Assembly (NCBI GenBank): GCA_031411135.1
Contig: JANOAN010000003.1
Location: 10,614 to 74,613, forward strand
Source of the DNA: a bacterium
Lineage (GTDB): Bacteria; Patescibacteriota; Minisyncoccia; Phycocordibacterales; CAIZLB01
Reading direction: 5' to 3'
DNA length: 64,000 nucleotides
Below, piece by piece: positions 1 through 58,131 of the stretch (position 1 is its first letter; the number at the start of each line of letters is the position of its first letter). The notes under the pieces are model-generated. The model saw nothing but the letters and a program-made list of their open reading frames with translations. It made no database searches and was not told the origin of the DNA. The position numbers were made by a program, and so were the translations under genes.

Positions 1-1422
1 GATAGGAGAAATTTCCGGCAGAGATCGGACACCCTGGTCGCTTATTGTCAAAATAATTTTTGAATTTTTATTTTCAAGTTTGATTGCAACTGTAGAGTCT
101 TTGGAATACTGAATTGAATTTTCTAGAACATTTGCGATTGCGGTATGCAACTTGGTGCGGTCCCCTTTTATTTTATAGTCCTCATCCCCGATATCCATTT
201 CAATATTAATATTATGATGATCGATGATAAATTTTCTATCGCATAAAATATCATTCAAAGTTTGAGCTAAATCAACTTCATCTTTTGAATATTTCATTTC
301 TTCATTTTCTATTTGAGAGATGGCGAGAAAGTCTTTCACGATGACAATAAACCGATCGATAATTCCTTGCAGGCTTTTCAGGCCTATTTTGTCGAGATCT
401 ACGTCTTTGTCGTTCAACAATGAGGCGTAAGCGTTTATGGCGGTTAGAGGGCTTGCCATCTGGTGGCGGGCCAAGGAGACGAACTTTGATTTTATTTCGT
501 CGACTTCCTTCAATTGGTGGTTGGCGTGGGCGAGTTCGAGGACTAAACGGCGATTTTCTTCGTACTGTTCGGCTTGTTTTTTGACGGATTTGATGAGGAG
601 GATGCCGATGAGGATGGAGACCACGAGAAATATTACGGAGGTTGATGCGTTCCCTTTTTGTTCAAAAGCAGTGATTTTTACCAGGGTGAAAATCCATAGT
701 AGTAGGACGAAGATTTCTGTGGTGATTACTTTTATATTGAATAGATGGTGACGAGTAACAGCATAAGTAATAGCTAGTGCTACAAAAATAGTAGAAGTAG
801 GTCCAATCCATATATATTTAAAATTACCCATGGTGTGAAGTAGTAAATTTGTATTGAAAGAAATCACCCCAGAAAGAGTGTACCCAATAAAGATATATAG
901 GATCTGGAACTTCTTCGGGTCATTTTTTGAATAATTAAGGTACTTTTTAAATAATCTTAAAAAGCTGCTACAAAAATAGTAGAGTATATAGATTATAAAA
1001 ATACCGTAGTAGTGTCCAAAAACTACCTTGTTATCAAATGATTCTAAAGCAACCCCTCCTGTAACAATAGTATTTGTTTTTAAAATCAAGAAGATTAGGA
1101 AGATGTTTATAAGTACAACCTTTATTAATTTATTCTTATATTCTTGTTTAAAATCAGGAAAAATTAAACTAAAATAGTAAAAGCTACTTGCGATGGGTGT
1201 AGCTGAAACATACAAACTTCTAATCATAAAATTTATATTTTCGCTATTGGCTATTCTAAAAAATGCAACACTCCCCGCCCACCAAACAATCGTTGTAATA
1301 TTCAAAAGATAAAGAATATAAACCATACCCTTGTCGCCATTTCTATACCCAGAAGAAGACACCGTCACTAGCATTAGATTTATAAGAATAATAGCACTTA
1401 GTAATATGTTTATATTATCCAC
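1..1422 (-). CDS. sensor histidine kinase, 3'-truncated at window edge; multi-TM N-terminal domain, HisKA, HATPase_c
   Basis: Minus-strand translation gives 'ELAHANHQLKEVDEIKSKFVSLARHQMASPLTAINAYASLL' (HisKA H-box) after about six TM helices. Paralog of 2921..4504. Start is GTG 1422 or ATG 1374; the ORF track missed it because it runs off the edge. Confidence 0.7.
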   Translation of the reverse strand, partial: MDNINILLSAIILINLMLVTVSSSGYRNGDKGMVYILYLLNITTIVWWAGSVAFFRIANSENINFMIRSLYVSATPIASSFYYFSLIFPDFKQEYKNKLIKVVLINIFLIFLILKTNTIVTGGVALESFDNKVVFGHYYGIFIIYILYYFCSSFLRLFKKYLNYSKNDPKKFQILYIFIGYTLSGVISFNTNLLLHTMGNFKYIWIGPTSTIFVALAITYAVTRHHLFNIKVITTEIFVLLLWIFTLVKITAFEQKGNASTSVIFLVVSILIGILLIKSVKKQAEQYEENRRLVLELAHANHQLKEVDEIKSKFVSLARHQMASPLTAINAYASLLNDKDVDLDKIGLKSLQGIIDRFIVIVKDFLAISQIENEEMKYSKDEVDLAQTLNDILCDRKFIIDHHNINIEMDIGDEDYKIKGDRTKLHTAIANVLENSIQYSKDSTVAIKLENKNSKIILTISDQGVRSLPEISPI

Positions 1423-1592
1423 TTGTTTCGCTTTATTATATACTAAATGAAAGACATGAACTTTTTATGAAATAAATATGAAATATACACGATTACTTAC
1501 ATTTTTTCATATGTTATATACTTGATTAATATGCACATTTCCATTCATATTAGGAAAGCATATAATATTACCTGCCCCATTAATGATTATGT

Positions 1593-2264
1593 ATGAATTC
1601 AGACTCAAAAATAATTACCTTAACTTATTATCTATTAAGAACACTTTTGAAACCTTTCATAAAAGGTTTGTGGGTTAAAAACGTGACAGGTTTATCAAAT
1701 ATTCCCAAAAGTGGATCAGCCATATTTGCTTTGAATCATCAAAGCTTTCTAGATTTTTTGACGTTTACTGTTATTTCCCCTCGAAACGTACACTTCCTTG
1801 CGGCTGAGAAGTTTTTTGAAAGCTTGTTTTGGAAGCCCATCATGATACTGTCCGGACAAATTAAAGTGACTAGAGAGTCTCACGATAAAGCAATAGTGCA
1901 TTCAATTGTTAAAAAACATGTAGATAAGGGAATGTTGTTGGCAATTTTTCCCGAAGGGACTCGTTCTCATTCTGAATCGGAAATGCTTAAGGCTTATACT
2001 GGAATAGCAAAATATGCCCTTGAACATCGCATCCCTATTATCCCTGTCGGGGTAAAGGGAACTCATGGAATCTTTTCAAAAGGTTCTAGTGAGCTAAAGT
2101 TCAGAAAGAGTGTAGAAATTAATATCGGAGAACCATTAATACACTCCGAATACTGGGGCAAACACTTAGACAAATCTACATGCACTCTTGTTACTGAAAA
2201 AGTCATCAAAAAAATAGAGGCATTATCTGGTAAAAAATATAACCACTATGAATTCAATCAATGA
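1593..2264 (+). CDS. plsC: 1-acyl-sn-glycerol-3-phosphate acyltransferase (lysophospholipid acyltransferase family)
   Basis: Acyltransferase motifs 'LNHQSFLD' (HxxxxD) and 'FPEGTRS'; length typical of PlsC. Confidence 0.8.
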   Translation: MNSDSKIITLTYYLLRTLLKPFIKGLWVKNVTGLSNIPKSGSAIFALNHQSFLDFLTFTVISPRNVHFLAAEKFFESLFWKPIMILSGQIKVTRESHDKAIVHSIVKKHVDKGMLLAIFPEGTRSHSESEMLKAYTGIAKYALEHRIPIIPVGVKGTHGIFSKGSSELKFRKSVEINIGEPLIHSEYWGKHLDKSTCTLVTEKVIKKIEALSGKKYNHYEFNQ

Positions 2265-2943
2265 TATAAAAGTTGCATTTGTTGATCTAGACGGCACTTT
2301 AATAAAAGGTCAGAGCCAAGCTTTGTTTATTAAATTTCTAAAGAATAAGAAAATTATTAGTAATCACCAATCTTTTATAATATTGTCTTGGTTTTTTTTG
2401 TATAAGATAGGCCTTGCTAAAAAAACAGAAAAAATACTCTCCTACGCACTTTCTTGTTTTAAAAACAGACCAGTAAAAGATTTCTACATCTATGTGAACG
2501 AATTTATAGAAAGTGTCATTAAAGCTAATTACTATAAGGACGCAGGGTTATTCTTAGACGACATGAGATCTAGGAATATTAAACTGGTAATACTCTCAAC
2601 ATCTGTAGATATACTTGTTAATAAGATTTCGGAAAATCTTAGGATTGAATCCTACTTGGCCACGAAGGTTGAAATATCCAATGGAATATTCACTGGTAGA
2701 ATTATTGGGGAACAAAATTATGGCGAAAAAAAATTATCAAGAATATTAGAATATATAAAACGAGATAATATAGAATTGAAAAACATCCTTGTGGTTGCGG
2801 ATAATTATTCAGATAAGGAAATTTTAATACAAGCAGGTGTAGGAATTGTTGCAAACCCCGACAAAAATATGATGAATTGGGCCCTACAAAATAAATTACA
2901 CATGATATACTTGGACAGATATGAACCTATTCAGTATATCTAG
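2248..2943 (+). CDS. HAD-superfamily hydrolase (HAD-IB, phosphoserine phosphatase-like)
   Basis: N-terminal 'VDLDGTL' HAD motif I. Overlaps plsC by 17 nt, so translationally coupled. Confidence 0.7.
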   Translation: MNSINDIKVAFVDLDGTLIKGQSQALFIKFLKNKKIISNHQSFIILSWFFLYKIGLAKKTEKILSYALSCFKNRPVKDFYIYVNEFIESVIKANYYKDAGLFLDDMRSRNIKLVILSTSVDILVNKISENLRIESYLATKVEISNGIFTGRIIGEQNYGEKKLSRILEYIKRDNIELKNILVVADNYSDKEILIQAGVGIVANPDKNMMNWALQNKLHMIYLDRYEPIQYI

Positions 2944-4504
2944 TTTGATACTTTGTCTTAGCAGTATCTTTTTTAGTCTTATTGTATATAGGTCTGACAG
3001 AGAAAATCCCGTTAGTTCCGCATGGCTATATACTTCTATATGTTTTGTTGGATGGTCATTAGGTCTCTATGGTGTGACATCTTCTAACACAATGGAGACT
3101 GCATTAAAGTGGCAATATGTTCTGGATGTTTCTGCTATTTTATTACCCGCGTTCTACTTTAATTTTATATCTGAGTTATTTAAATTTAAAAATTATAAAT
3201 GGAGGTATTTAATAATTACAGTATCGTTTATTCTTGCGGGATTTAGTTTTAGTTCATTATTTAAAATTGGAGTAGAACCAAAATATGAATTTTTCTGGGT
3301 TAATCCAGGTCGCTTTTATTTAATATTCCCCATATACTTTATTATCAATGCTTTCATATCAAGTACGATATTTATTTCTCAATTTCTAAAAACATCCCCA
3401 AAATCTATTGAGCGTGGTCAAGTGAGAAACACGATGATTGCAGGCCTTATGGGATACATTGGTGGGGTATCAAATTTCTTCCCGCAATTTTTTAATATCT
3501 ACCCTTACGGAAACTACCTTGTCATCTTGTTCATAGTCTTCATGGTATACGGAGTTTTGAGATATAAACTATTAAGTACGAAGGTTATATCCGCACAAAT
3601 ATTTTCAACGATTCTAGTCTTGGTTTTTCTATTTAACTTATTTCGTTCTGCAACACTTTACGAGTGGGTTGCGAATTTTTTAGTTTTGTTATTTGTGTTT
3701 ATTTTTAGTGTCTTCTTAATAAGAAGCGTTGACCAAGAAGTTATCGCCAGGAAGGAAATCGAATCCCTCGCCACCTCACTCGAACAAGCCAACTCGCACC
3801 TCAAAGAACTGGACCAGCAAAAATCTGAATTCGTCTCCCTCGCATCGCACCAACTCCGCGGTCCCCTCACCGCCATAAAAGGCTACGCCTCAATGCTTCT
3901 CGATAACGACTTTGGACCAGTAGAGGGTGGTGTCCGCGATGCAGTGGACAAAATGTACCAATCTACTCAGGACTTGGTAGTTGTGGTTGGAGACTATCTA
4001 GATGTATCAAGAATTGAACAAGGTCGCATGAAGTACGATTTTTCTGACTTTGACATGAAGGATCTTGTCGCAACTACAATCACCGAACTAAAACCAAACA
4101 TTGAACGCGCAAAACTAGATGTGAGTTTTGATTATGATTCAAATTCAAACTTCATGGTTAATGCAGACCAAGGAAAAATCAGACAAGTAATTGGTAACTT
4201 GTTAGATAACTCGATTAAATATACACCCAAAGGTAGTATTCATGTCTGGCTTCAAAAAACTCCTGAAAATAAAATCTTAATTAGTATTTCTGATACCGGA
4301 GTTGGTATTCGCCCGGAAATTCTACCGAGGCTTTTTGAAAAGTTTACCCGAGCACCCGATGCTTCGAAAACCAATATCTTAGGAACAGGACTCGGTCTTT
4401 ACGTGGCAAAGAAAATGATAGAGGCGCATAGTGGCCGGGTGTGGGCAGAATCTGCAGGTGCTGATAAAGGTTCAACTTTCTTTATTGAACTAAAATCCCT
4501 TTGA
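2921..4504 (+). CDS. sensor histidine kinase with multi-TM N-terminal domain
   Basis: Six to seven predicted TM helices, then 'SLASHQLRGPLTAIKGYASML' (HisKA) and an HATPase_c G-box 'GTGLGLYVAKKMIEAHSG'. Confidence 0.85.
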   Translation: MNLFSISSLILCLSSIFFSLIVYRSDRENPVSSAWLYTSICFVGWSLGLYGVTSSNTMETALKWQYVLDVSAILLPAFYFNFISELFKFKNYKWRYLIITVSFILAGFSFSSLFKIGVEPKYEFFWVNPGRFYLIFPIYFIINAFISSTIFISQFLKTSPKSIERGQVRNTMIAGLMGYIGGVSNFFPQFFNIYPYGNYLVILFIVFMVYGVLRYKLLSTKVISAQIFSTILVLVFLFNLFRSATLYEWVANFLVLLFVFIFSVFLIRSVDQEVIARKEIESLATSLEQANSHLKELDQQKSEFVSLASHQLRGPLTAIKGYASMLLDNDFGPVEGGVRDAVDKMYQSTQDLVVVVGDYLDVSRIEQGRMKYDFSDFDMKDLVATTITELKPNIERAKLDVSFDYDSNSNFMVNADQGKIRQVIGNLLDNSIKYTPKGSIHVWLQKTPENKILISISDTGVGIRPEILPRLFEKFTRAPDASKTNILGTGLGLYVAKKMIEAHSGRVWAESAGADKGSTFFIELKSL

Positions 4505-4628: not shown

Positions 4629-4731
4629 AATATATACTCCTAGCAAAATTGACTAACCCCCTTCTTTTGCATACTATCAAAACGGAACTTGAAAAAACAT
4701 CACAAAAACAACACCAGAAAGCAGGTAACCA

Positions 4732-5580
4732 ATGAATCCACAAATCTTAGACGGAAAAATCTGCAGTGCCGAAGTTCGCGGAGAACTCGCCGATGAGGTC
4801 CGTAAGTGTCAGCGTCCCCCGAGTCTCGGTATCATCCTCGTCGGAAACGACCCTCGAAGCGAGGTGTACGTCAGTCACAAACTGAAAGCGGCAAAGGAAG
4901 TTGGAATAGAAACTCACATCATCCGGTGTGACTCAAACATTTCAACAGCAGACCTTCTGCTTGTCGTCGGACGGTATAATCGGGATGTGAACATGGATGC
5001 ATTTATCATCCAATTCCCGCTCCCGCCGCACATCGACAAAGAGGTCATCATCAACTCAATCGACCCTTTGAAGGACGCCGACTGCTTCCACCACGCAAAT
5101 CAAGGGTTGCTTTTCCAAGGCACTCCACGCTTCGTCCCAGCCACCCCTCGCGGAGTGATTGAATTGCTCCGCAGGTACGGCCACACAACGTCCGGAAAGC
5201 GCGTGGTAGTCGTCGGTCACAGCCTCATTGTCGGACGTCCGCTTGCTGCGGCACTTCTACTCGAAGGTCCAATGGGAGAAGCGACGGTAACAATTGCTCA
5301 CATTAAAACACAAGATCTACCGGACGTTACTCGCACAGCGGAAATCCTCATCACCGCGACAGGTAAGCCCGGTTTGATTGCACGTGAACATGTCATGCCT
5401 GGCGCAGTGGTCGTCGATGTCGGTATAACCAAAACCGAAAAAGGAATCGTAGGTGATGTGGACTTTGAAGCGGTTAGTGCTGTTGCTTCGGCAATTACTC
5501 CCGTGCCGGGAGGAGTTGGGCCGATGACGGCCGTAATACTTCTCAAGAACACACTTCTTGCACACCAGTTGTGCCGTTAA
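4732..5580 (+). CDS. folD: bifunctional methylenetetrahydrofolate dehydrogenase/cyclohydrolase
   Basis: Full-length FolD-like sequence ('YVSHKLKAAKEVGI', 'TPRGVIELL', 'PGGVGPMT'). Sits in the GC-rich segment. Confidence 0.85.
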   Translation: MNPQILDGKICSAEVRGELADEVRKCQRPPSLGIILVGNDPRSEVYVSHKLKAAKEVGIETHIIRCDSNISTADLLLVVGRYNRDVNMDAFIIQFPLPPHIDKEVIINSIDPLKDADCFHHANQGLLFQGTPRFVPATPRGVIELLRRYGHTTSGKRVVVVGHSLIVGRPLAAALLLEGPMGEATVTIAHIKTQDLPDVTRTAEILITATGKPGLIAREHVMPGAVVVDVGITKTEKGIVGDVDFEAVSAVASAITPVPGGVGPMTAVILLKNTLLAHQLCR

Positions 5581-5592
5581 TCTTCCACCGAT

Positions 5593-5641
5593 CCATTCAC
5601 GAGACCACCGTCCGTGACAGGGTCGGTGGTTTTTCGTTTTT
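5593..5641 (+). terminator. intrinsic terminator downstream of folD; member of a conserved terminator family (see 9254..9306, 37833..37866)
   Basis: 'ccaccgtccGTGACAGggtcggtgg' hairpin followed by TTTTTCGTTTTT. Confidence 0.6.
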
Positions 5642-5693
5642 ATATATTAAAAAAAAGAGCTTGCAACATATCGCTACGTTGCAAGCTCAGTAA

Positions 5694-6803
5694 TTAATTC
5701 TTCAATTGCTCAATCGACCGTACCAAGTTCTTCCGAGCAGTAGTTTCGTACTTGTCTCGAAACAACGCTGTCGAATAGATCGATGAACGGTCGAGGAAGG
5801 ACTGGAGGACACTTGACCGACCTGCACAGAAGTCGACCTGCGGAACCCAATCATATTCTCTGCGGATTCCCGCTTCGTACGCATCGAAGGCTTTTTCTGA
5901 CTTACCTAAAACCATGAGGTCAAGGTCTACCAGAATTTGAGCTGCACGATCAGTTGGCACTGCGGCATGCTTGGTCTCCATAACCAATTCACTGACTTGT
6001 TCACCTAGGCTATCAGGTAAATCAATCTTTCCGATAGTGTCCTTTGCCAACTCTGCACTCTGCTCTTCATTGTCCTTTGCTTTCGGATCGTAAACTGCAT
6101 CATGGAACCAGATTGCCAATGCCACAGCTGGATCACCTTCGTGCATTTGCTCGAGTTCGTCGAGCATCATCACGATATGTTCCAGATTATGGTAGGCCCT
6201 CTGCGCTTCACCATATCGTTTCAGGAGATCTTCCAAGACCGCTTCCGATCCTTTAGGATTTCCCAACACCGACATAAGCGTCGCCCAATGCTTCCGTGCT
6301 TTTCCGAGAACAAACTTTTCCTTGAGTCTGACCACAACGGCTGCAGGAACTGAACGAGTCACTTGGCTCTCCCACTCGGGGTCGATTCCAACATGCCCCT
6401 TTACCATACTTGAACTCACATGCATGAGATTCGGCAAGCATGGAACCCAGATAGTTTCGACTGTTGGGCAGATCATGCGATTCTCTTCGGCCAGCGTTTG
6501 CTCGGCTTCGAGATCTTTGAAGTTCCGCAGACCCCGAACAATGACTTGTGCACCGATAGATTCGGCATGCTTTACGACGTAATGGCCGGAGCAGACATCC
6601 ACGGTGACATTTGGCAGATGTACTACAGCTGCCTTAGCCATACCTACTCGCTCCTCGGGAGTGAATGTGTATGTCTTTCGAGGATCCACTGCGACGAGAA
6701 CAATGAGTTCATCGTAGAGCGGTGCCATCCGTTCGATGACGTTGATGTGTCCGTTTGTGATTGGATCGAGACTTGCCGCATATACTGCTTTTCTTGCTTT
6801 CAT
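5694..6803 (-). CDS. coaD: phosphopantetheine adenylyltransferase (CoaD) fused to a C-terminal HD-domain phosphohydrolase
   Basis: N-terminal 155 aa align to PPAT ('AVYAASLDPITNGHINVIER', 'IRGLRNFKD'). The C-terminal ~200 aa carry HD motifs 'YHNLEH' and 'WFHDAVYDP'. Confidence 0.8.
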   Translation of the reverse strand: MKARKAVYAASLDPITNGHINVIERMAPLYDELIVLVAVDPRKTYTFTPEERVGMAKAAVVHLPNVTVDVCSGHYVVKHAESIGAQVIVRGLRNFKDLEAEQTLAEENRMICPTVETIWVPCLPNLMHVSSSMVKGHVGIDPEWESQVTRSVPAAVVVRLKEKFVLGKARKHWATLMSVLGNPKGSEAVLEDLLKRYGEAQRAYHNLEHIVMMLDELEQMHEGDPAVALAIWFHDAVYDPKAKDNEEQSAELAKDTIGKIDLPDSLGEQVSELVMETKHAAVPTDRAAQILVDLDLMVLGKSEKAFDAYEAGIRREYDWVPQVDFCAGRSSVLQSFLDRSSIYSTALFRDKYETTARKNLVRSIEQLKN

Positions 6804-6805
6804 AA

Positions 6806-7402
6806 CTATTTTCCTTTCTTTTGTTTGAGATTTTGATAGAGATTGCTCACCCTATCTTTGAGTTGATCCAAGCTACAGTCTGTGTGAACCACAAACTGAG
6901 CTCTCTGTTCTTTTTCTGCTGATGGAAGTTGCTGATCAAGTCTGGCTTGTATCTCTACATCGTCCATCTGTCTGTTTTCTCGCAATCTTCGAAACTGCTC
7001 GTCAGGATTACAGGTTGCAACTATGATCTCTGCAAACTGTTCCTCGCTCATTGTTTCGAAAATGATAGCTGACTCGACAATGCAAACCTTGCCATCACCG
7101 GCAAAATCAACCTTCTCATTCACACTTGCCCACACAAGGGGGTGGATCAGAGCTTCAAGCAATCTTTTCTTTTCAGGGTCCTCAAAGATGATTTTTGCAA
7201 TTGCTCGAAAGTTCACTTTTTCACTTGAGAAAACGTTTATACCAAGGATGGTATTGATTTGATGTCTGTGTGCATTACCAGAGATGATTTCTTTAGCAAT
7301 CTGGTCACAATCTAGAATCAATACATCTGGATACTTTGAGAGCAGTGTTGCCACAGCACTCTTACCGCAGCCTATATTGCCCGTAAGTCCGAATGGTTTC
7401 AT
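6806..7402 (-). CDS. coaE: dephospho-CoA kinase
   Basis: 'GLTGNIGCGKSAV' P-loop; DPCK-like length. Separated by 2 nt from coaD, so an operon. Confidence 0.8.
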   Translation of the reverse strand: MKPFGLTGNIGCGKSAVATLLSKYPDVLILDCDQIAKEIISGNAHRHQINTILGINVFSSEKVNFRAIAKIIFEDPEKKRLLEALIHPLVWASVNEKVDFAGDGKVCIVESAIIFETMSEEQFAEIIVATCNPDEQFRRLRENRQMDDVEIQARLDQQLPSAEKEQRAQFVVHTDCSLDQLKDRVSNLYQNLKQKKGK

Positions 7403-7453: not shown

Positions 7454-7481
7454 TTGACAAAAAGAGTCAATACTGTATAAT
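7454..7481 (+). promoter_or_regulatory. sigma70-like promoter (TTGACA-16-TATAAT) for the TrmB-like regulator gene
   Basis: TTGACA at 7454-7459 and TATAAT at 7476-7481, about 15 nt before the ATG at 7497. Confidence 0.5.
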
Positions 7482-7496
7482 AACCATTATACAAAT

Positions 7497-8264
7497 ATGC
7501 AAGAGCCCCGAAAACATCTTATGAGTCTTGGTTTAAGTGATTCTGAAGTCACCGTGTATTTAGCCATGGTGTCAGGGGCCAGAACTGCTAGAGATCTCGT
7601 AAAGGTTACTCGCCTAAAAAGACCAACAGTTTACTATGCACTGGGTTGTCTAGAAAAAAGAGGACTGACAAGCAAAACTGGCTTAGCGGGTGATAAAAGC
7701 TTTTCACTTGAACAAATTGAAAAACTATCTGTCATTGCTAAAGAAAAAGCATTGGAGTTTTCTAAACTTCAACAACGCATCGATGAGATGGTCCCTACCC
7801 TATCAGCTACATCATCTCCAGCTAATCAAAAACCAACAGTCGCTTTTTATGAGGGAGTAGACGCAGTGAAGAGCGCCGTCATGGATATGCTTTATTGTAA
7901 AAGTAAAAAAATTAGCTCTGTTGTGCCCAAGCAAAACTTTTTCTGGCAGGTAGGCCAAGATTTTGTTGAGCTTTATATTGAGGAGCGTGTTAAGCGAAGT
8001 ATTAAAACTAAGAATTTATGGGAAGCACCCATAAATAAGGGATTAATAAAACAATATTACGAGGGATTATCGCAAGTCAGAATATTACCTGAAGTAATGC
8101 ATGATAAATTTCAAACAACAACCTTTATGTATGACGACAAGACTCTCTATGTATCCTCAAAAAATAACAGCTACTGTGTACTTATAAAATCTAAGGAGCA
8201 CACGGATACGATGCGGGCATGGTTTGATGGGCTTTGGGGTGCATCGAAGCCGCATGATAGGTAG
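7497..8264 (+). CDS. TrmB-family transcriptional regulator
   Basis: N-terminal winged HTH 'LGLSDSEVTVYLAMVSGARTARDLVKVTRLKRPTVYYALGCLEKRGL', followed by a TrmB-like C-terminal domain. Confidence 0.65.
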   Translation: MQEPRKHLMSLGLSDSEVTVYLAMVSGARTARDLVKVTRLKRPTVYYALGCLEKRGLTSKTGLAGDKSFSLEQIEKLSVIAKEKALEFSKLQQRIDEMVPTLSATSSPANQKPTVAFYEGVDAVKSAVMDMLYCKSKKISSVVPKQNFFWQVGQDFVELYIEERVKRSIKTKNLWEAPINKGLIKQYYEGLSQVRILPEVMHDKFQTTTFMYDDKTLYVSSKNNSYCVLIKSKEHTDTMRAWFDGLWGASKPHDR

Positions 8265-12624: not shown

Positions 12625-14259
12625 CTACTTTACATGCACCTCATTCCCCAACACCGGCACATAAAACTTATCGATATATTCCACAAGCATTCTTGTCGTA
12701 CTGAATTTTTCTAAAATCAAATCTCTGGAATTTTTCATTCTCGTTCTCCATTGATCTTTCGAGTCATAATACATCGGGACAATTTCCCACTCTAAAATAT
12801 CCAACATATTTCGACTTCCTTCTATTGTCCAACCAATCTGCGAGAGATTCACTTCATACACCCAGCCGTCCCTTGTTGAAAATGGCAAAGCCCCGTTGAG
12901 GCACGCTTTCATACCTGAAGTTCCACACGCTTCCCTTCCAACCTCTGGAGTATTGAGCCACACATCACATCCTGAAACCAACATTTTTGAAAGTTCTAAA
13001 TCATAATTCGGTAAATATACTAAAATATCTTTTAACTCATTTCCTGCATATTGTAAGAGGGTTTTTAAAAACGGATTTCCTTCTTCCGCTGGTCCTGAAA
13101 AAACAATCTGCACTTTACATCCTTCTCGTGAAGCGATTTCTTTAAATCTTTTCAAGTCTGAAAGAATCGCAATTGGTTGCTTGTATTCCACCAACCTTCT
13201 TCCCCACCCAAGGAGCAGTACATCTTCGTCAAAAGCTTTCCCAGTTTGTTTTTTAATTTCTTTTAAAAGCAACCTCTTATTCTCCTGATGTCTCTGCCAA
13301 AAATTAGCTGAATCTACATAGTCGCCTATGGCATCCCAGCGCTCTATATATATACCATTCGTCACCACTTCAATATTAAAATCCTTCCACAGAACTCCAG
13401 CTTTTATTGAATGTAGCATCGACACAGCATTCACCTTTGATGACATATTAAGTGCCAAGTTTGTCATCGAGAAAAACTCTTCGTTAGGAATTTTTCCAAG
13501 GGAAATGATCACATTCAGTGCGACTTCAATTTCCTCGGAAAATCTACGGAGCATATAATCTACTTTATCAATTGCAAAAATTTCCTGACCAGCTGGCACA
13601 AGTGTGTGATTGGTAAATACAATATGCTGACGTGCATATTGATAAGCTTTCGCAAACGGCAACTGATGACGATGCATCTCGTGGCGTATAAGCTCAAGAC
13701 ATAAAAATGCCGAGTGGCCTTCGTTTAAATGGAAAACTGATGGATGGATTTCAAGTGCACGTAAAAATCTCATACCCCCGATACCAAGAAGGATTTCCTG
13801 CATCAATCTCACATCGTGATTCTCATCATACAAAATGTTCGTAATACCCTTATCATCAATATGATTTTCTTCAATATCCGTATCTAGTAAAATTATTCTC
13901 GCATTATTACTTTTGATTTCCCACGCACGAATCAGCACGTCGCGATCTCCTATGGGTAGTGTGATCGTTAAAACTTTTCCTTCTTTGTCCAAAACTTTGG
14001 ATAATCCGAAATCCCAAGGATTCTTTTTTTCTCCAAAGACACTGCCCCACTTATATTTATAAAAAAGCCCCATACATACCACCGGAAAACCCTGGTCTGC
14101 CATTTCAAAAAAATAATCTCCTGCCAAAACCCCTAATCCTCCTGCATAAAACCTACGATCATTAAAAATTGCGTACTCGGCGGAGAAATAGGCCACCGGG
14201 TCTTTTTTCAAAGCCTCGTACTGCTCTGTATTTTTAAATTGTGCAAGCCACTCTTTCAT
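12625..14259 (-). CDS. glgP: alpha-glucan (glycogen/maltodextrin) phosphorylase, GT35
   Basis: PLP-lysine motif 'EACGTSGMK'. The start was trimmed from 14382 to the ATG at 14259, which has an AGGGGG RBS and sits 4 nt after the GH57 stop. Confidence 0.8.
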   Translation of the reverse strand: MKEWLAQFKNTEQYEALKKDPVAYFSAEYAIFNDRRFYAGGLGVLAGDYFFEMADQGFPVVCMGLFYKYKWGSVFGEKKNPWDFGLSKVLDKEGKVLTITLPIGDRDVLIRAWEIKSNNARIILLDTDIEENHIDDKGITNILYDENHDVRLMQEILLGIGGMRFLRALEIHPSVFHLNEGHSAFLCLELIRHEMHRHQLPFAKAYQYARQHIVFTNHTLVPAGQEIFAIDKVDYMLRRFSEEIEVALNVIISLGKIPNEEFFSMTNLALNMSSKVNAVSMLHSIKAGVLWKDFNIEVVTNGIYIERWDAIGDYVDSANFWQRHQENKRLLLKEIKKQTGKAFDEDVLLLGWGRRLVEYKQPIAILSDLKRFKEIASREGCKVQIVFSGPAEEGNPFLKTLLQYAGNELKDILVYLPNYDLELSKMLVSGCDVWLNTPEVGREACGTSGMKACLNGALPFSTRDGWVYEVNLSQIGWTIEGSRNMLDILEWEIVPMYYDSKDQWRTRMKNSRDLILEKFSTTRMLVEYIDKFYVPVLGNEVHVK

Positions 14260-14263
14260 TTTT

Positions 14264-15757
14264 TTAAACCCCCTGTTGTTCTGGTTGACCACCACGGAGG
14301 CGCGAGTATTCATCTTTATATTTTGTAATAATTTGTTCGACTTCTTCATTTGGAATTTTAACACGTAAAAGGTCAATTGCATTCATTGCTTCATATATAT
14401 CAAGTTTGTTTTCTAGTTTGTACACCGCATCTCGCCATAAAATTGCTTGTTCATATTCCTTGTTTTCAATTGCTTCCTTTTCCAATCGTTTCATCATATC
14501 AACGAAGGCATAATAAACCCCTTCTTCTTCACCACCTTTAGAAATAGTTCTATCTTTGAAAGGGATGCGCAGAACCGTTTGTTGTTCATGACTCATCTCA
14601 CGAATCTTTCCTGATCGTTGCCAATTGAAACCGGTCGACACGATGTTTTGATAAAGTTTACCCGCCTTGTTTAGAACTTCCGGATCAAGATTTGAAATTA
14701 AACTTAAGACTTCATGCAATCTATATGCTCCGTCCTCTACCATTTCCATACTCCACCAAGGTTTTCCTGAAGCCCACCAAAAATGATCGCTGGTTAACGC
14801 ACGATCCATCTTTTTTCGCACGTCCAAATATTCGGAAGCGTTTTTATCCATTTTCTGAACTTGATCCAACGCAAGTTTTAACAATTCATGTTGCATTGTG
14901 TGTAAAATATTCTCAGGATCTGCCCATGATATGAATTGAACTCCCCTTTCAATATCCTTCTTGCTACTAGCCCAAGTAGACTTGATTGGAGAAATTTCTA
15001 CTATGTCTTTATAAAGCTCCATGAGCTTTGAAATATTTACAAGATGTAATTCTGGAACAGAAAACATATCAAAAAGAAGTTTCTCTAACCCAGGTCGGTG
15101 GTGCCCGAAAGTTTCCCCATCCATTCCAGTCAAAATGTAACGGTTACTCTTTAAATCATCAGTCATCGCATCCATCAAAGTCTTCACCGAACGCACGCCG
15201 GCGCCCATAATAAGATTACTTAGTCTTCTTTCTCTAAAAAATACTTTCAAATTAGTATTTTTTATCTTATATATTTTAGTGTAGTCCACCCTTCCTGTTT
15301 CCCCATAAGCCGCAATCTCATCGAGGATGATCCATTCAAAACCCATTTCCTCAACGATCGCTGACATTTCCTCTTTAAAAGCCATCTCGGGTGGAAAGAA
15401 TCCTTTCGGATTATATGAATCTCCAAGGTACTGGCGGCTAATCTCATCGTTAATTTGTATCTGGCGAACAATTTCTTCTTTATCCAAAAATGGCAAGAAC
15501 GAATGATATTTGGCAGATCCTGTAAATTCGATTCGTCCATCTTTTCCCATCTCTTTCAACATTTCAATTAAATCCTGGTGACCATATCTATCAAAAAGCT
15601 CTAGCAAAGACCCGTTTATATTAAGTGTTAAGTGAATATCTTTATTGTCCCGCAACTGAGTTAGCAGGGGTCGGTAGCACTGTGCAATCACTGCTTCCAA
15701 CACATCAGCTTGCTGGTCCGGCGGCTGATATATGTGTAAGAAGTTTGCCCAGTACAT
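14264..15757 (-). CDS. GH57-family glycoside hydrolase (alpha-amylase / glucan branching enzyme-like)
   Basis: N-terminal 'HIYQPP', 'GHHRPG' and ~500 aa length match GH57 branching enzymes. Confidence 0.65.
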   Translation of the reverse strand: MYWANFLHIYQPPDQQADVLEAVIAQCYRPLLTQLRDNKDIHLTLNINGSLLELFDRYGHQDLIEMLKEMGKDGRIEFTGSAKYHSFLPFLDKEEIVRQIQINDEISRQYLGDSYNPKGFFPPEMAFKEEMSAIVEEMGFEWIILDEIAAYGETGRVDYTKIYKIKNTNLKVFFRERRLSNLIMGAGVRSVKTLMDAMTDDLKSNRYILTGMDGETFGHHRPGLEKLLFDMFSVPELHLVNISKLMELYKDIVEISPIKSTWASSKKDIERGVQFISWADPENILHTMQHELLKLALDQVQKMDKNASEYLDVRKKMDRALTSDHFWWASGKPWWSMEMVEDGAYRLHEVLSLISNLDPEVLNKAGKLYQNIVSTGFNWQRSGKIREMSHEQQTVLRIPFKDRTISKGGEEEGVYYAFVDMMKRLEKEAIENKEYEQAILWRDAVYKLENKLDIYEAMNAIDLLRVKIPNEEVEQIITKYKDEYSRLRGGQPEQQGV

Positions 15758-15762
15758 ATTAT

Positions 15763-17265
15763 TTATTGGTTTTTTTCTTCACTATTAAAAGCAATCGCTT
15801 TTTTGAACATTTCTATGTATTCTTTGGCAGACTTTTTCCAAGAAAAATCTGTGGTCATTGCGCGCTTTTGGAGAGTCACCCACTCTTTAGGATGCTTGTA
15901 AGTTTCAAGAGCGCGCACGAAGGCACCAAAAAAAGCATACGGGTCATACTTTTCAAAAACGAATCCTGTGCCTTCCTTATTGTTCTCATTATAATCAACA
16001 ACACTATCCGCTAGACCTCCTGTTTTTCTAACTAGCGGTAGTGCCCCATAGTGCATAGCTTCCATCTGAGTAAGGCCAGATGGTTCAAATTTTGAAGGGA
16101 CAAGGACTAAATCCGCCCCAGAGTGCACAACGTGAGGTAAGGTTGTATCAAATGATAAGTGAGTGGCAACTTGAGTATATCTCTTCTCTAAATCCGCAAA
16201 AAATCCTAGATATTTAGAATCCCCATTTCCTAGCACAATAAGTTGAAATTTGAAGTTTTCAAGAAGGGGTTCGATTGTCTGTAATACCAAGTCCATCCCC
16301 TTTTGCTCTGCTAGTCTAGAAACGATTGCGACAAGAGGAGTACTTGGCTCTTCTTCCAAGTTAAATTTTCGCTGTAAAACAGCTTTGTTCTTTTGCCTGT
16401 CTTTGAGGCTTTTTACTGAGTACTTGTATTCAATATATGGATTAGCAGTTGGGTCGTTACTTGTATAATCGATTCCATTTAAAATTCCCGACAGACGTGA
16501 ACGACGCTCTGCTAAAAGCCCATCGAGCATTTCACCGTATTCTGGTGTGGTGATTTCTTGCGCATAGTTTGGAGAAACCGTGTTAACCACATCTGCAAAA
16601 AGAATACCACGTCGCATAAAATTGATTTTTAACATGCGCTGATCATCAATTGCAGGTATAACTGATCGTCCATCGTCATAATCCATTTCATTTATAAAAT
16701 GATGATCAAACATTCCCTGAAAATGCAGGTTGTGAATACAAAAAACTGAAGCAATCTTGGAGATAATCGGGTCTTTGGCATATTCGGTTTTCATCAAGTT
16801 TGGAATAAGCCCTCCTTGCCAATCCGCTGAAACGATAATGTCCGGTCTCCAGTCTTCATTTCTTTTTATGAATTCTAATGCGGCGCGCGAAAAAACGGCG
16901 AATCGCGCGCCGTCATCATCATATCCATATACATTTCCTCGCTGTTCAAAGTACTCCATGTTCTCCATAAAATAACTTGGAACTTCTGAGCCGTTTGCGG
17001 TAGCCACTTTTACGTTACAAGAAATTGGGTGCTCATCTCTTCCGCTTGGAATAGAAATTCCTTCCATGATCATTTCCATCGGGAATTTTTCTTTTGGAAT
17101 TGAGCTGTAGTAAGGAATCATTACCCGAGCATCATGGCCAAGCTCGCGAAGAGCCTTTGGAAGAGAGTACATCACCTCGCCAAGTCCTCCGACTTTGATA
17201 AATGGAGCTGCTTCACAACCTAAAAAGAGAATTTTAAGGCCTTTTGATTTTAGAGAGAGTTTCAT
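15763..17265 (-). CDS. glgA: glycogen synthase (GT5, ADP-glucose type)
   Basis: 'KVGGLGEVMYSLPKAL' (KxGGL motif) and the C-terminal 'GLTQMEAMHYGALPLV'. Confidence 0.85.
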   Translation of the reverse strand: MKLSLKSKGLKILFLGCEAAPFIKVGGLGEVMYSLPKALRELGHDARVMIPYYSSIPKEKFPMEMIMEGISIPSGRDEHPISCNVKVATANGSEVPSYFMENMEYFEQRGNVYGYDDDGARFAVFSRAALEFIKRNEDWRPDIIVSADWQGGLIPNLMKTEYAKDPIISKIASVFCIHNLHFQGMFDHHFINEMDYDDGRSVIPAIDDQRMLKINFMRRGILFADVVNTVSPNYAQEITTPEYGEMLDGLLAERRSRLSGILNGIDYTSNDPTANPYIEYKYSVKSLKDRQKNKAVLQRKFNLEEEPSTPLVAIVSRLAEQKGMDLVLQTIEPLLENFKFQLIVLGNGDSKYLGFFADLEKRYTQVATHLSFDTTLPHVVHSGADLVLVPSKFEPSGLTQMEAMHYGALPLVRKTGGLADSVVDYNENNKEGTGFVFEKYDPYAFFGAFVRALETYKHPKEWVTLQKRAMTTDFSWKKSAKEYIEMFKKAIAFNSEEKNQ

Positions 17266-48723: not shown

Positions 48724-48798
48724 GCTCTCGTCGTTCAATGGATAGGACGTAACTTTGCGGAAGTTATGATACAGGTTCGATTCCTGTCGAGAGCACCA
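48724..48798 (+). tRNA. tRNA-Arg (anticodon reads GCG), encoded CCA
   Basis: GCTCTCG acceptor, D-arm GTTCAATGGATAGGAC, anticodon stem TAACT/AGTTA with loop TTGCGGA, T-arm ACAGG-TTCGATT-CCTGT, CGAGAGC-A-CCA. Confidence 0.7.
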
Positions 48799-48870
48799 CT
48801 AAGGCCGATGCGGAGGCCTCATATTTCTCAACGTTTTTTCGTTGTTGAAATTGAGCACCCCGCTTGGAAT

Positions 48871-50268
48871 CTAACTTTTAGGAAGGATACCTTCTTTTTG
48901 CTGTTTTTGATTGGGCTGACTTACAGGAGGTGTGTCTTTCAACAGCTCATCTGATTCAGTCTTATCAACAGATATCTTTCCATCTTTCAAAATCAATTTG
49001 CTTTTCAGGTTTACTAAAACATGACGTTGTTCGTAAATGTTGCCATCTTTCAGGAGAAACTTCATATATTTTTTGATATCAATATCTCCTAATTCCTTAC
49101 TCTCAAATCCACCTGGATCACCGATGACATCTCTGTGAAAACGATACATTCGATTTACATCCATATCCATCTGTCCTCGTACGCCGAGTTCGTTAATGGA
49201 TAATTCATCAACTATCTCACAGAGTGATTTTATGAGATCCTCCTCACGGATATATGTCATAGGACAATGATGATCTTTTGTCCTTGAACAACCATAATAG
49301 ACGTATCTCATAATAGTTCCGTCTTTCAAAGCTTTAAACTTTTCTTCAGCAGTAACACTTGAACCACAGAGTCCGCATTTAATTAAATGTGTGTAAGCAA
49401 AATCTTTTTTGTAAATCCGTGTCGCTCGTTTTTTCTTCTTCATTTCTTCTCGCACTTTATCAAAAAGTTCCTTTGTGATGAGTGGTTTATGTACACCATG
49501 GTACCAATTACCGCTTTTCTTAGGGTACTCAAACATGCCGTAATAAAAAGTTCTAGTGAGAGCTAGTTGTACACCACTTAATGCAATATGTTTTCCGTTT
49601 GGTGATCTAAAGTCTAGTTCATCAGTAAGCCAATCTCGTATACGATGTTGACTCCAACCCTCGGACGCTTTTTCAAACATCATTTGGACTATGTGTGCTC
49701 GAACTGGATCTATCTTCACAATACCTCGATTACCTTTCTCTCCAACATTCGTGTATCCCAAAGGTGCAACCCCTGGCCACAACCCTTTTTCTACAAGAGT
49801 TCTCAAACCTCTTTTTACATTTATACCTTTAGTATCATTTTCAAGTTTTGCTTGTGATCCAAGAATCATGAGTAGAAATTTCTCGTTAGGTGAGTTAGAA
49901 AAGTTTTGATTATATGTCCTGATTTCTAAAAGTTGCTTACTATCCATAAGATCAATCAGTCTACCTAGATCACCTGCATTTCGGCTAAGTCTATCTGGAT
50001 GCCACGTAAGGATTGCATTGTATTTTCCAGCCTTTATCTCGTCGATCATTTTATTAAAAACTTCACGCTCACCAGAATTTTTAGCTGAGTGGGCTTCAGT
50101 TTTTACTGTCACTACTGAAAGATGATCTCGTTCGGCAAGTTTATTCATCTCACTTATCTGAGATTCAATTGACAAAGCTTGTCGTTCTTCGTCCTCGCTA
50201 GATTTTCTGGCGTAGAGGCAGTAGATGAGGGCTGGAGATGGCACTTCTTTTACAGCAGAGTTTTCCAT
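48871..50268 (-). CDS. large serine recombinase (resolvase/invertase N-terminal catalytic domain + recombinase domain + zinc ribbon)
   Basis: 'LYARKSSEDEERQALSIESQ' catalytic Ser region, 'PLGYTN', and a 'CGLCGS...YYGCS...HHCP' Zn ribbon. Confidence 0.85.
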   Translation of the reverse strand: MENSAVKEVPSPALIYCLYARKSSEDEERQALSIESQISEMNKLAERDHLSVVTVKTEAHSAKNSGEREVFNKMIDEIKAGKYNAILTWHPDRLSRNAGDLGRLIDLMDSKQLLEIRTYNQNFSNSPNEKFLLMILGSQAKLENDTKGINVKRGLRTLVEKGLWPGVAPLGYTNVGEKGNRGIVKIDPVRAHIVQMMFEKASEGWSQHRIRDWLTDELDFRSPNGKHIALSGVQLALTRTFYYGMFEYPKKSGNWYHGVHKPLITKELFDKVREEMKKKKRATRIYKKDFAYTHLIKCGLCGSSVTAEEKFKALKDGTIMRYVYYGCSRTKDHHCPMTYIREEDLIKSLCEIVDELSINELGVRGQMDMDVNRMYRFHRDVIGDPGGFESKELGDIDIKKYMKFLLKDGNIYEQRHVLVNLKSKLILKDGKISVDKTESDELLKDTPPVSQPNQKQQKEGILPKS

Positions 50269-50309
50269 AACTCATATTTTAATAAAAATACAGATGGAAA
50301 TCTAGATAT

Positions 50310-51629
50310 TTATTCCATCATCAGCTTCTTATCCTTCAGCAATATTCTACTCTTAATACAACTTAGCACTTCTCGCTTCTGCAACATCGTCCCGTGCTGA
50401 AGCATATGCTTTGCAAATGTTTTGATTGATACGTCTTTGTGCTTCTTCGATTGCCCTAGATCCACCCCAAGCACTCCAGTCTGGAAAAGTGCATATCGTG
50501 CCACTTCTTCTTGAAGCTTCTGCTTCAGTTCTGATTTATCCATGCTCATCTTGTCTATTATCGGTAACATCTCTGATATCAATATATCCTCTTTCACTGA
50601 CTCGTTCGGACAGTCTCGATCCTTCAATTTGGTGCACCTGTAGTAGACATGAGCGTTGAAACCACCATCCTTCAATTCCTTGATCTTCTCCTCTGCTGTT
50701 ATGCCCGATTCGCAGTAGGCACAGTGGAGCATTCTGGTGAAGGCAAACTCTCTGCCGTAGGCTTTTTTCTTCTCAACCCTGATTTTGTCCTGCACCAGAT
50801 CGAAAAGTTCCTTGGTGATGATCGGTGTATGCTTGCCTGTATACCAGTCACCGCTTCCAACAGGATATTCAAACACTCCGTAGTAGAAGGTCAGCCTTAA
50901 TATTCGGTAGATATTACCTAATGTCATCGGCTTGTTGCCTCTTGTTACAAATTTCACATCTTTGAGCCACCTATATATCTTCCTACCAGAGTAGTTTTCA
51001 GTGGCTACTTTTTCAAATATTTCTTTTATGAGTGGTGCTCTTACGGGATCAACTTCCACCTGACACTTTTTATCCACATTTTTGCTGTTTAGGTATCCAG
51101 TTGGTGCTGTGCATGGCCAGAGTCCCATCTGGCATCTTGCCCTTAGGCCTCGCTTCACATTTACCACCTTATTGTCGTTCTCAAGCTTTGCCTGTGATCC
51201 TAGAATCATGAGCATAAATTTCTCATTCGGCGTGTTGCTGAACTTTTGTCCATAGGTGCGTATCTCATGAAGCTTCTTCTGATCCATCAAGTCTACGATT
51301 CTTCCAAGATCACCTGCGTTTCGTGCAATTCTATCAGGTGCCCACGTCAGTATTCCATTGAACTTACCCTGATTGATCTCATTCACGATTTCGTTGAACA
51401 CTGGTCGTTGCCCCGCTTCCTTGGCAGAATGCGACTCTTGTTTTCTTGCCACAATCTCTAATCCCTCATTAATCGCCATCTTCTCCATTTCCCGTATCTG
51501 GCTATCAATGGAGAGTACCTGCTTATCCTCCTGTTCTGTACTTTTCCTTGCGTAAAGCACGTATTTAACCCTTACAGGGATTGATATTTTGGCCTCCATC
51601 CCCACTGGCCTTTGTATTGTATGATCCAT
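50310..51629 (-). CDS. large serine recombinase, paralog of 48871..50268
   Basis: 'LYARKSTEQEDKQVLSIDSQ', 'PTGYLN', and 'CAYCESGITAEEK...YYRCTKLKDRDCP'; ~45% identical to the neighbouring recombinase. Confidence 0.85.
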   Translation of the reverse strand: MDHTIQRPVGMEAKISIPVRVKYVLYARKSTEQEDKQVLSIDSQIREMEKMAINEGLEIVARKQESHSAKEAGQRPVFNEIVNEINQGKFNGILTWAPDRIARNAGDLGRIVDLMDQKKLHEIRTYGQKFSNTPNEKFMLMILGSQAKLENDNKVVNVKRGLRARCQMGLWPCTAPTGYLNSKNVDKKCQVEVDPVRAPLIKEIFEKVATENYSGRKIYRWLKDVKFVTRGNKPMTLGNIYRILRLTFYYGVFEYPVGSGDWYTGKHTPIITKELFDLVQDKIRVEKKKAYGREFAFTRMLHCAYCESGITAEEKIKELKDGGFNAHVYYRCTKLKDRDCPNESVKEDILISEMLPIIDKMSMDKSELKQKLQEEVARYALFQTGVLGVDLGQSKKHKDVSIKTFAKHMLQHGTMLQKREVLSCIKSRILLKDKKLMME

Positions 51630-51634
51630 ACCTA

Positions 51635-51684
51635 CATTGATGACAGAGACCCTCCGAGGAGTCTAGGAGGGGTCAGTTGGTAAC
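51635..51684 (+). repeat. 50-bp direct repeat copy A (duplicate of the KAP gene RBS/start region)
   Basis: 'cattgatgacagagaccctccgaggagtctaggaggggtcagttggtaac' versus 52084..52133, about 80% identical. Confidence 0.6.
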
Positions 51685-52022
51685 TAATTTCGCTCAATCT
51701 CTGATTTTTTGCTCAATCCTTTCTCTTTAAAAAACCCGTCTATCATTTTTACGTTACCTTTCGCTCCAACGTGCCAGATGTTAACTTCGTTAACTGGAAT
51801 GATTTCTTTGTAATCGTAAATTGTTACCACTGTAGGCTTTTTATGTTTTGTTTTGAAAGACCATTCGACACGCACCTTTCCATCGCTAGATTTCCACCTT
51901 TCATCAGTAACTCTGTCGTTGGGTTTACCTAGACAACTGACAAGATGCTCGTATGAAGAAATGGTATATCCACTGAAACTTGAGCCGTTTATATCCTTTG
52001 GTTCTGCTTTGATGAATTTCAT
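51684..52022 (-). CDS. hypothetical protein (112 aa) flanked by direct repeats
   Basis: ORF bracketed by the two 50-bp repeats. Confidence 0.45.
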   Translation of the reverse strand: MKFIKAEPKDINGSSFSGYTISSYEHLVSCLGKPNDRVTDERWKSSDGKVRVEWSFKTKHKKPTVVTIYDYKEIIPVNEVNIWHVGAKGNVKMIDGFFKEKGLSKKSEIERN

Positions 52023-52083
52023 ATGTTTTTTGCTTGTTAATTCGGCCTACGTCAGAGTCACTTGTAGCGGGTTTTCACAAACA

Positions 52084-52133
52084 CATTGATGACGCAGACC
52101 ACTTAGGAAGTCTAGGAGGGGTGAGTTGGTAAT
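52084..52133 (+). repeat. 50-bp direct repeat copy B, containing the AGGAGG RBS and TTG start of the KAP NTPase gene
   Basis: 'cattgatgacgcagaccacttaggaagtctaggaggggtgagttggtaat'. Confidence 0.6.
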
Positions 52134-57846: not shown

Positions 57847-57930
57847 ATCTAAGCTAAGGTACAGACAGATACCTCAGTTTTTGGTATCATGGTAATCACA
57901 ACAAAGACCTAACCCCTAGAAAACCCTTAG

Positions 57931-58015
57931 TTTCCTAGGATATGGTCGTAATAAAAACCGCTACAGTATAGAAGACTCCTCGTCAGAGTCACTGTAGCGG
58001 TCGCGTCTAGGAAAC
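57931..58015. repeat. nested inverted-repeat element (outer TTTCCTAGG/CCTAGGAAA, inner CCGCTACAGT/ACTGTAGCGG, innermost GACTC/GAGTC)
   Basis: Direct reading. A third CCGCTACAGT copy lies at 58117..58126, and 'cgtcagagtcacTtgtagcgg' recurs at 52050..52070. Confidence 0.55.
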
Positions 58016-58131
58016 TGGATGTGGGTTGAGCCGAAAGGTTCGATCACAATGGCGAGGGGTCTTCTGTCTCAAGGCTCAAAACTCCTCGCCACTTATTATT
58101 AGTTAATAAGCTTAAACCGCTACAGTGGCTT

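Follow-up and report, generated by a model that had tools for sequence, protein, structure and literature searches.

Why should an enzyme of coenzyme A (CoA) synthesis be made in one piece with a hydrolase? The route to CoA is regarded as a closed pathway of five steps, and its second-to-last enzyme, phosphopantetheine adenylyltransferase (PPAT, CoaD), is an antibiotic target. The question is raised by a gene, here called coaD-HD, in which CoaD is followed in frame by a predicted phosphohydrolase domain of the HD superfamily. The gene lies on a 64,000-nucleotide stretch of a genome of the bacterial phylum Patescibacteriota (contig JANOAN010000003.1, positions 10,614 to 74,613 of the forward strand), which is referred to below as the window. 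The fusion proves to be one of several arrangements in which this HD family is joined to CoaD and to dephospho-CoA kinase (CoaE).

The coaD-HD gene and its CoaD half

The gene is a single unbroken open reading frame (ORF) of 369 aa on the minus strand (5694..6803), with ATG at 6803 and TAA at 5696-5694. A preliminary description of the locus, made from the letters alone, gave no strand; it had read the gene as a continuous frame with no frameshift signature, and this reading holds: the 369 codons are uninterrupted and the same protein is found in a second assembly. The two motifs that had been quoted for the C-terminal half, YHNLEH and WFHDAVYD, are both present there. The features of the gene are as follows:

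5694..6803, minus strand: complete coaD-HD fusion ORF (ATG start, TAA stop, 369 aa)
6324..6803, minus strand: CoaD (phosphopantetheine adenylyltransferase) domain, residues 1-160, with TIGR01510, PF01467 and PDB PPAT matches
nt 6747-6758, minus strand: TNGH (T/HxGH motif), residues 16-19, inside the CoaD domain
Minus strand, inside the CoaD domain: SSS motif, residues 130-132
5694..6323, minus strand: predicted phosphodiesterase (PDE)-like HD-superfamily phosphohydrolase domain (residues 161-369 with the stop codon)
6177..6194, minus strand: YHNLEH motif, residues 204-209, with H205 and H209 invariant in 68 fusions
6087..6110, minus strand: WFHDAVYD motif, residues 232-239, with the invariant HD dyad H234-D235
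5919..5927, minus strand: D293-L-D295, with D295 the distal metal-ligand Asp of the H..HD..D pattern

Residues 6-164 matched the NCBIfam equivalog model for pantetheine-phosphate adenylyltransferase, TIGR01510, at model positions 2-155 of 155, scoring 136.7 bits against a curated cutoff of 103.3. The N-terminal half was also matched by Pfam PF01467 and by 34 solved PPAT sequences in the PDB, the best at E 5.8e-28. PPAT motifs are present as TNGH at 16-19, K43, R90-G-L-R93 (RGxR) and the serines at 130-132. When 68 fusions sharing only 32-83% identity were aligned, the residues of this half that were invariant were H19, K43, R90, R93, D97, E101 and S131, which correspond to the known catalytic and binding motifs of the E. 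coli PPAT. The catalytic residues look intact and the whole family model is matched above its cutoff, bearing out the earlier view of the N-terminal half as a complete CoaD. Judged by its sequence, domain 1 is a bona fide PPAT, predicted to convert 4'-phosphopantetheine and ATP to dephospho-CoA and pyrophosphate (PPi). It resembles the canonical CoaD/KdtB (E. coli PPAT, PDB 1b6t) in matching the entire model and in its T/HxGH, K43, RGxR and SSS elements. The canonical enzyme is, however, a standalone protein of ~160 aa, whereas here the last CoaD helix enters a 209-aa hydrolase domain directly.

The fusion is genuine

A separate Logan assembly, made from run SRR20217193, contains an identical 369-aa protein with the same neighbours. 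When the whole protein was run against the full library with HMMER, 150 best cluster representatives (50% identity) were obtained, 144 of them new, and the CoaD-HD order was present in 108 of these 144, at identities down to 32%. Most of the 108 were aligned in one continuous match, from about residue 4 to residue 367, at 32-54% identity. Orthologous fusions, for which the preliminary description had suggested looking in sister genomes, are therefore found in many other genomes, with fused relatives at 83%, 58%, 53% and lower identity. A search with the HD domain contributed 7 further coaD-HD proteins among the best 120 of 928 matches. In the full-length AlphaFold2 model (predicted local distance difference test score, pLDDT, 97.1; predicted template modelling score, pTM, 0.91), residues 154-179 form a single helix that bridges the CoaD and HD domains without a flexible linker.

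These observations bear on the possibility that adjacent coaD and HD genes were merged artificially by a sequencing or assembly indel at their junction. Six genomes have coaD and HD as separate genes, and five of these pairs overlap by 4 nt, so that a small indel there might well join them. There is also a 77%-identical gene (L001:7624-8714) on a JGI 90-kb contig, the closest relative on a long contig, that is frameshifted by a 2-bp insertion. This insertion, however, sits inside the coaD part and away from the domain junction; it splits the gene into two calls of 122 aa and 237 aa. Either the assembly is wrong at this point, or coaD is decaying there while the HD half stays intact. Because the identical ORF occurs in a second assembly, the same domain order recurs in 108 representatives and the junction is a confidently modelled continuous helix, the artefact explanation was rejected as extremely improbable. 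The coaD-HD fusion is genuine and old. It is also common in public sequence data, mostly under the plain annotation CoaD.

The HD half: sequence, predicted fold and relatives

No Pfam or NCBIfam model was found to cover the C-terminal domain when the whole protein and 108 members of its family were scanned; the 108-member alignment consists mostly of standalone proteins. PF01966 (Pfam HD) gave no match to the C-terminal half even at E<=1, and a PDB sequence search with the C-terminal domain alone matched nothing. The domain search proposed in the preliminary description (Pfam CTP_transf_like plus HD) thus fails for the HD half, and the lack of a PF01966 match formally touches its caveat that a C-terminal half with no HD-family hit would count against the assignment. 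Other evidence nevertheless favours the HD superfamily. Sub-threshold PF01966 matches were seen in 15 of the 108 members (best E 6.7e-4), and the family profile gave marginal matches in the PDB to the HD proteins BH2835 (E 0.013) and YedJ (E 0.028). Four residues invariant in all 108 members, H45, H74, D75 and D135 of the domain, correspond to H205, H234, D235 and D295 of the full protein. With these, the H..HD..D residue pattern of the HD superfamily (the metal-dependent phosphohydrolases of Aravind & Koonin) is present as H205, H234-D235 and D295. Also invariant in the 108 members, in domain numbering, are Y78, E86, S89, E156, R169 and N199, while D293 is kept in at least 90% of sequences. 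On this sequence evidence the C-terminal domain belongs to the HD superfamily, and its family would be a hitherto uncharacterised metal-dependent phosphohydrolase. Weak matches to Pfam DUF4202 were seen in 9 of the 108 members (best E 0.0054), and DUF4202 may be a remote relative of this orphan family.

With residues 161-369 as the query, 928 homologues were found. The best 120 were 41-82% identical, all family-invariant residues being present in the C-terminal domain here, and most of these 120 were standalone proteins of ~205-215 aa. JGI names the homologues 'predicted metal-dependent HD superfamily phosphohydrolase' (E 1e-106 to 1e-42, 95-100% coverage), while NCBI sometimes mis-names them 'N-methyl-D-aspartate receptor NMDAR2C subunit'. 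The family is presumably COG4339 / InterPro IPR009218. The C-terminal domain is clearly a member of this named family, and differs from most listed members by its fusion to CoaD. Literature searches turned up no publication that deals with the HD family or describes a CoaD-HD enzyme.

In the 68 fusions, the invariant residues of the HD half were H205, H209, H234, D235, D295, E316, R329 and N359. Since such residues, like those of the CoaD half, are invariant across fusions of so little overall identity, both active sites are under selection. The conservation also bears on whether the domain might be a non-catalytic HD-like module for ligand binding or oligomerisation, sensing, for example, CoA, which is a feedback inhibitor of PPAT. 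With a pTM of 0.91 and an unbroken helix between its domains, the protein looks like a rigid structural unit, and inactive HD-like helical domains do exist, such as Ppx/GppA, which is present among the matches to the HD domain. However, invariance of the expected metal and catalytic residues is the signature of an active site, and this holds for H205, H209, H234, D235 and D295 in the fusions and, with H209 kept in at least 90%, for the same set in the 108 mostly standalone members. We regard a purely non-catalytic role as very improbable.

The AlphaFold model of the HD domain, built from the family alignment, has ten helices with a pLDDT of 97.8 and a pTM of 0.93. The predicted structure is an all-helical HD fold, and it has the fold of the class I PDE catalytic core with a putative H-x3-H, HD, D two-metal site, although Foldseek searches with the model reached E-values of only ~1e-2. 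In YHNLEH the H205/H209 spacing, H-x3-H, is that of the class I PDE motif YHNxxH; PDE4D carries YHNNIH (PDB chain 2qyn_A), and the Y-H-N-x-x-H form is common to PDE4D and the HD domain. The likeness to the class I PDEs (PDE1-PDE10, PF00233) thus consists of the predicted fold and the His/Asp set H205-x3-H209, H234-D235 and D295.

Membership of the class I PDEs was rejected at the sequence level. PF00233 did not match the fusion protein or any of the 108 family members, the family profile showed no significant relation to the PDE4D catalytic domain in hhalign (probability 0.1%), and where class I PDEs have the signature HDxxHxG the HD domain has HDAVYDP, with HDxxY in place of HDxxH. The domain is also ~110 residues shorter than the class I PDE catalytic domain, and its family is largely prokaryotic in the sources seen, unlike the class I PDEs. 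The YqeK Ap4A (diadenosine tetraphosphate) hydrolase family was likewise discarded, the domain belonging to it neither by sequence nor by structure. The HD half is therefore a PDE-like member of the HD superfamily, and neither a class I PDE nor a YqeK. Its modelled catalytic core resembles the two-metal core of the class I cyclic-nucleotide PDEs, and the family may be the closest prokaryotic structural relative of this eukaryotic core; such closeness of fold would be of evolutionary interest.

A PDE-like core could also belong to a signalling enzyme that hydrolyses cyclic AMP or cyclic GMP, 2',3'-cyclic nucleoside monophosphates or Ap4A; its fusion to CoaD would then serve co-regulation and not a shared chemistry. 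A nucleotide signal as substrate, and a parallel with nadD-yqeK, had been suggested in the preliminary description. We consider this unlikely; if the HD domain does act on an unrelated nucleotide, the finding shrinks to one more bifunctional gene.

Recurrent association of the HD family with CoaD and CoaE

The CoaD-HD order is not the only one in which these domains are joined. Among the representatives from the full-length search, 6 proteins had the order HD-CoaD and, as checked with Pfam, 5 had CoaD-CoaE-HD and 3 had CoaE-CoaD-HD. One triple fusion lies on an archaeal-type contig, beside Spt5 and SecE genes. Two very long proteins were also seen: P0147 (7895 aa) has HD followed by a degenerate CoaD-like stretch, CoaD and CoaE amid many other domains, and P0246 (3466 aa) has HD and then CoaD.

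The six genomes with separate coaD and HD genes are two Verrucomicrobiota (L009, L024), two Planctomycetota (L010, L017), one of the Terriglobia (L059) and a Nanoarchaeia metagenome-assembled genome (L006). In five of these six GTDB pairs, an ATGA or GTGA joins the start codon of one gene to the stop codon of the other, whereas the start of the L010 HD gene precedes the coaD stop codon by ~20 nt. The HD gene of L006 comes after a gene that already encodes a CoaD-CoaE fusion. A rough neighbour-joining tree of 258 HD domains required at least 18 switches between fused and standalone states, compared with ~87 when the labels were shuffled, bearing in mind that proteins counted as standalone may still be encoded beside coaD. 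This indicates that the architecture is inherited yet has changed repeatedly. The HD family is thus linked with CoaD and CoaE in two ways: by domain fusions in four or more orders, and by overlapping genes in phyla that are far apart.

Clustering of the neighbourhoods around the HD gene in the genome loci was uninformative on function, as the sole recurrent neighbours came from closely related Mesorhizobium/Aminobacter loci. Long upstream-extended HD ORFs in high-GC genomes had no Pfam domain in the extension and are probably ORF-calling artefacts, with the exception of a CYTH fusion in Variovorax that is described below.

Possible functions of the HD domain

We think it reasonably probable that the substrate of the HD domain is a CoA-pathway metabolite and not an unrelated compound. 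Fused metabolic domains usually catalyse neighbouring steps, and the sole step directly before CoaD is the supply of 4'-phosphopantetheine. For this reason we propose, tentatively, that the HD domain may supply CoaD and CoaE with 4'-phosphopantetheine that it frees or regenerates by hydrolysis. The analogy is with AcpH, an HD-family enzyme that recycles 4'-phosphopantetheine from acyl carrier protein (ACP) in E. coli; Nudix enzymes, too, regenerate 4'-phosphopantetheine from CoA. AcpH serves as a functional model only, as a metal-dependent HD-type hydrolase that makes CoaD's substrate without detectable homology to the HD domain.

The proposed steps are as follows. Release: the HD domain would act as a phosphodiesterase or pyrophosphohydrolase, releasing 4'-phosphopantetheine from a pantetheine-carrying donor. 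Possible donors are a holo-carrier protein and CoA or dephospho-CoA that is spent, oxidised or wrongly made. Catalysis would be of the two-metal PDE type, in which a metal-bridged hydroxide attacks the phosphorus and H205 acts as the general acid that protonates the leaving oxygen, like the equivalent His in class I PDEs. Rebuilding: the freed 4'-phosphopantetheine would be re-adenylylated by the fused CoaD and then phosphorylated by CoaE. HD, CoaD and CoaE together would form a three-step salvage or recycling module for which the early CoA enzymes are not needed.

Several observations weigh against this proposal. At the sequence level AcpH membership was rejected: hhalign of the family profile against E. 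coli AcpH gave a probability of 0.3%, and PF04336 (the AcpH family) had no match in the fusion protein or the 108 family members. Archaea are not known to have ACP, and without it holo-ACP could not serve as the donor in the DPANN archaea, L006 and L091 among them; cleavage of CoA followed by its rebuilding would be futile unless the enzyme is restricted to damaged species. Furthermore, 68 of the 74 GTDB loci with an HD gene have no coaD or coaE within ~6 kb. Together with the standalone state of most of the best 120 of 928 homologues, this suggests that the general role of the HD family may not be CoA-specific. Finally, an HD-family member of Variovorax sp. OV329 (L074:5488-6585) is in frame with a CYTH domain (PF01928), with no stop between them, which hints at tri-/pyrophosphate or cyclase-related chemistry.

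The CYTH fusion is also a point in favour of a second scheme, in which the HD domain hydrolyses CoaD's PPi (or tri-/polyphosphate) and so removes a by-product and pulls synthesis forward. A by-product as substrate had also been put forward in the preliminary description. The PPAT reaction is reversible and releases PPi, the CYTH family makes or splits tri-/pyrophosphates, and R202 and R329 are conserved basic residues to which an oligophosphate could bind. However, the CYTH fusion is found at only one of 80 genome loci, and we know of no inorganic pyrophosphatase in the HD superfamily. The general-acid His, H205, is better suited to an alcohol leaving group, and the fusion to CoaE is left unexplained, as CoaE releases ADP and not PPi. 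By-product removal therefore seems to us quite unlikely.

A third scheme is that of an opposing activity, by which the ribose 3'-phosphate would be removed from CoA, giving dephospho-CoA, or from the by-product 3',5'-ADP. Such an enzyme would counteract CoaE and set the size of the CoA pool, by analogy with the HD domains that are set against a transferase or synthetase in SpoT/Rel and GlnD. Most fusions, however, are with CoaD alone and not with CoaE, and if a kinase and a phosphatase were made constitutively from one operon, they would cycle futilely unless there were regulation, of which nothing is evident here. We are aware of no CoA 3'-phosphatase of that kind in bacteria, and hold this scheme to be improbable.

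At the level of the family, the widespread prokaryotic 'mini-PDE' HD proteins would be a missing third enzyme of the terminal CoA module, beside CoaD and CoaE, with a hydrolytic step of CoA salvage, repair or turnover that no enzyme has yet been assigned. This is a possibility to which we give guarded credence. The extra step would have been hard-wired by fusion in ultra-small symbionts (CPR-like bacteria and DPANN archaea) and likewise in Planctomycetota, Verrucomicrobiota and Acidobacteriota. Whatever the reaction, the recurrent joining of what appears from its residues to be an active hydrolase to CoaD and CoaE is a strong genomic hint of an extra reaction in terminal CoA metabolism, since it occurs in at least four domain orders and is accompanied by operon pairing in other phyla. 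Candidates are 4'-phosphopantetheine recycling, repair of damaged CoA and control of pool size. The arrangement occurs in organisms that are thought to live on scavenged cofactor precursors, and coaD-HD could help to explain how reduced-genome symbionts acquire CoA. For a large orphan family mis-annotated as an 'NMDA receptor subunit', it also offers a lead on function that can be tested.

Operon and regulatory context

The features that surround coaD-HD in the window are as follows:

6806..7402, minus strand: coaE (dephospho-CoA kinase), 198 aa, with PF01121 at 1.3e-33 and TIGR00152 at 103.2 bits against a cutoff of 65.55
5657..5688, minus strand: intrinsic-terminator-like hairpin (stem of 14 bp, then a T run), beginning 5 nt past the coaD-HD stop
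4732-5580, plus strand: folD, convergent with coaD-HD
7497..8264, plus strand: gene for a TrmB-family regulator, divergent from coaE, with PF01978 at 4.7e-09
7474..7493, unstranded: perfect palindrome TGTATAAT-N4-ATTATACA in the gap between coaE and the TrmB-like gene
7454-7481, plus strand: perfect TTGACA-16-TATAAT promoter-like site, overlapped by the palindrome

The TAG stop of coaE lies 2 nt ahead of the coaD-HD start codon. Because of this 2-nt gap, the terminator-like hairpin after coaD-HD and the convergence of folD from the other side, coaE and coaD-HD look like a co-transcribed, two-gene operon. The preliminary description had noted neither this neighbour nor the fusions that include CoaE in other lineages. 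The divergent TrmB-like gene is kept in the same position in L001, in L002/L003, which carry a fusion with 58% identity, and in L090, where it lies upstream of a CoaE-CoaD-HD triple fusion. The gap between coaE and the TrmB-like gene is 94 nt, and the 20-nt palindrome in it ends 3 nt before the TrmB-like start codon. The palindrome is unique in the window, where 0.03 would be expected by chance, and in L001 and L002/L003 both of its 8-nt arms recur unchanged at the corresponding position. We regard it as a candidate operator, which would serve the TrmB-like regulator and perhaps the coaE-coaD/HD operon as well.

The TrmB family often controls sugar metabolism. A storage-polysaccharide cluster (12625-17265, minus strand) lies only a few kb from the TrmB-like regulator, with a glycogen/starch synthase at 15763-17265 near a carbohydrate phosphorylase-like gene at 12625-14382. 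Base composition varies strongly from one part of the window to another: folD and coaD-HD (4700-6900) have 47-53% GC and the region just upstream (~800-3800) has 30-35%, compared with 39.8% for the whole window. Further away, a match to the LOOT RNA motif (Rfam RF03000) was found at 57906-58045 on the plus strand (52.7 bits, gathering score 46.4). A tRNA-Arg gene at 48724-48798 is followed by large serine recombinase genes at 48871-50268 and 50310-51629 (minus strand) and by a KAP-family P-loop NTPase gene at 52126-54897; the region 48724-54897 may be an integrated mobile element. No rRNA gene was found within the window, and the relatives found for its FolD, the protein itself apart, share no more than 60% identity with it.

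Comparison with known designs

Three groups of known systems resemble coaD-HD. In nadD-yqeK, a hydrolase of the HD superfamily likewise has an adenylyltransferase as its partner, one from the same nucleotidyltransferase superfamily as CoaD. In SpoT/Rel, GlnD and the bacterial CCA-adding enzyme, a nucleotidyl- or phosphoryl-transferase is covalently joined to a hydrolase. CoaBC, the eukaryotic COASY (PPAT joined to dephospho-CoA kinase) and the kinase-phosphatase PANK4 are joined enzyme domains of the CoA pathway itself, and the triple CoaD/CoaE/HD fusions mirror COASY plus one extra domain. None of the members of the last two groups contains this HD family. Both domain families of coaD-HD are already catalogued; the novelty lies in how they are combined, and the design is a familiar one. 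Taken alone, the gene is an ordinary representative of a large family; the wider lead is the family-wide link to CoaD and CoaE together with the predicted PDE-like fold.

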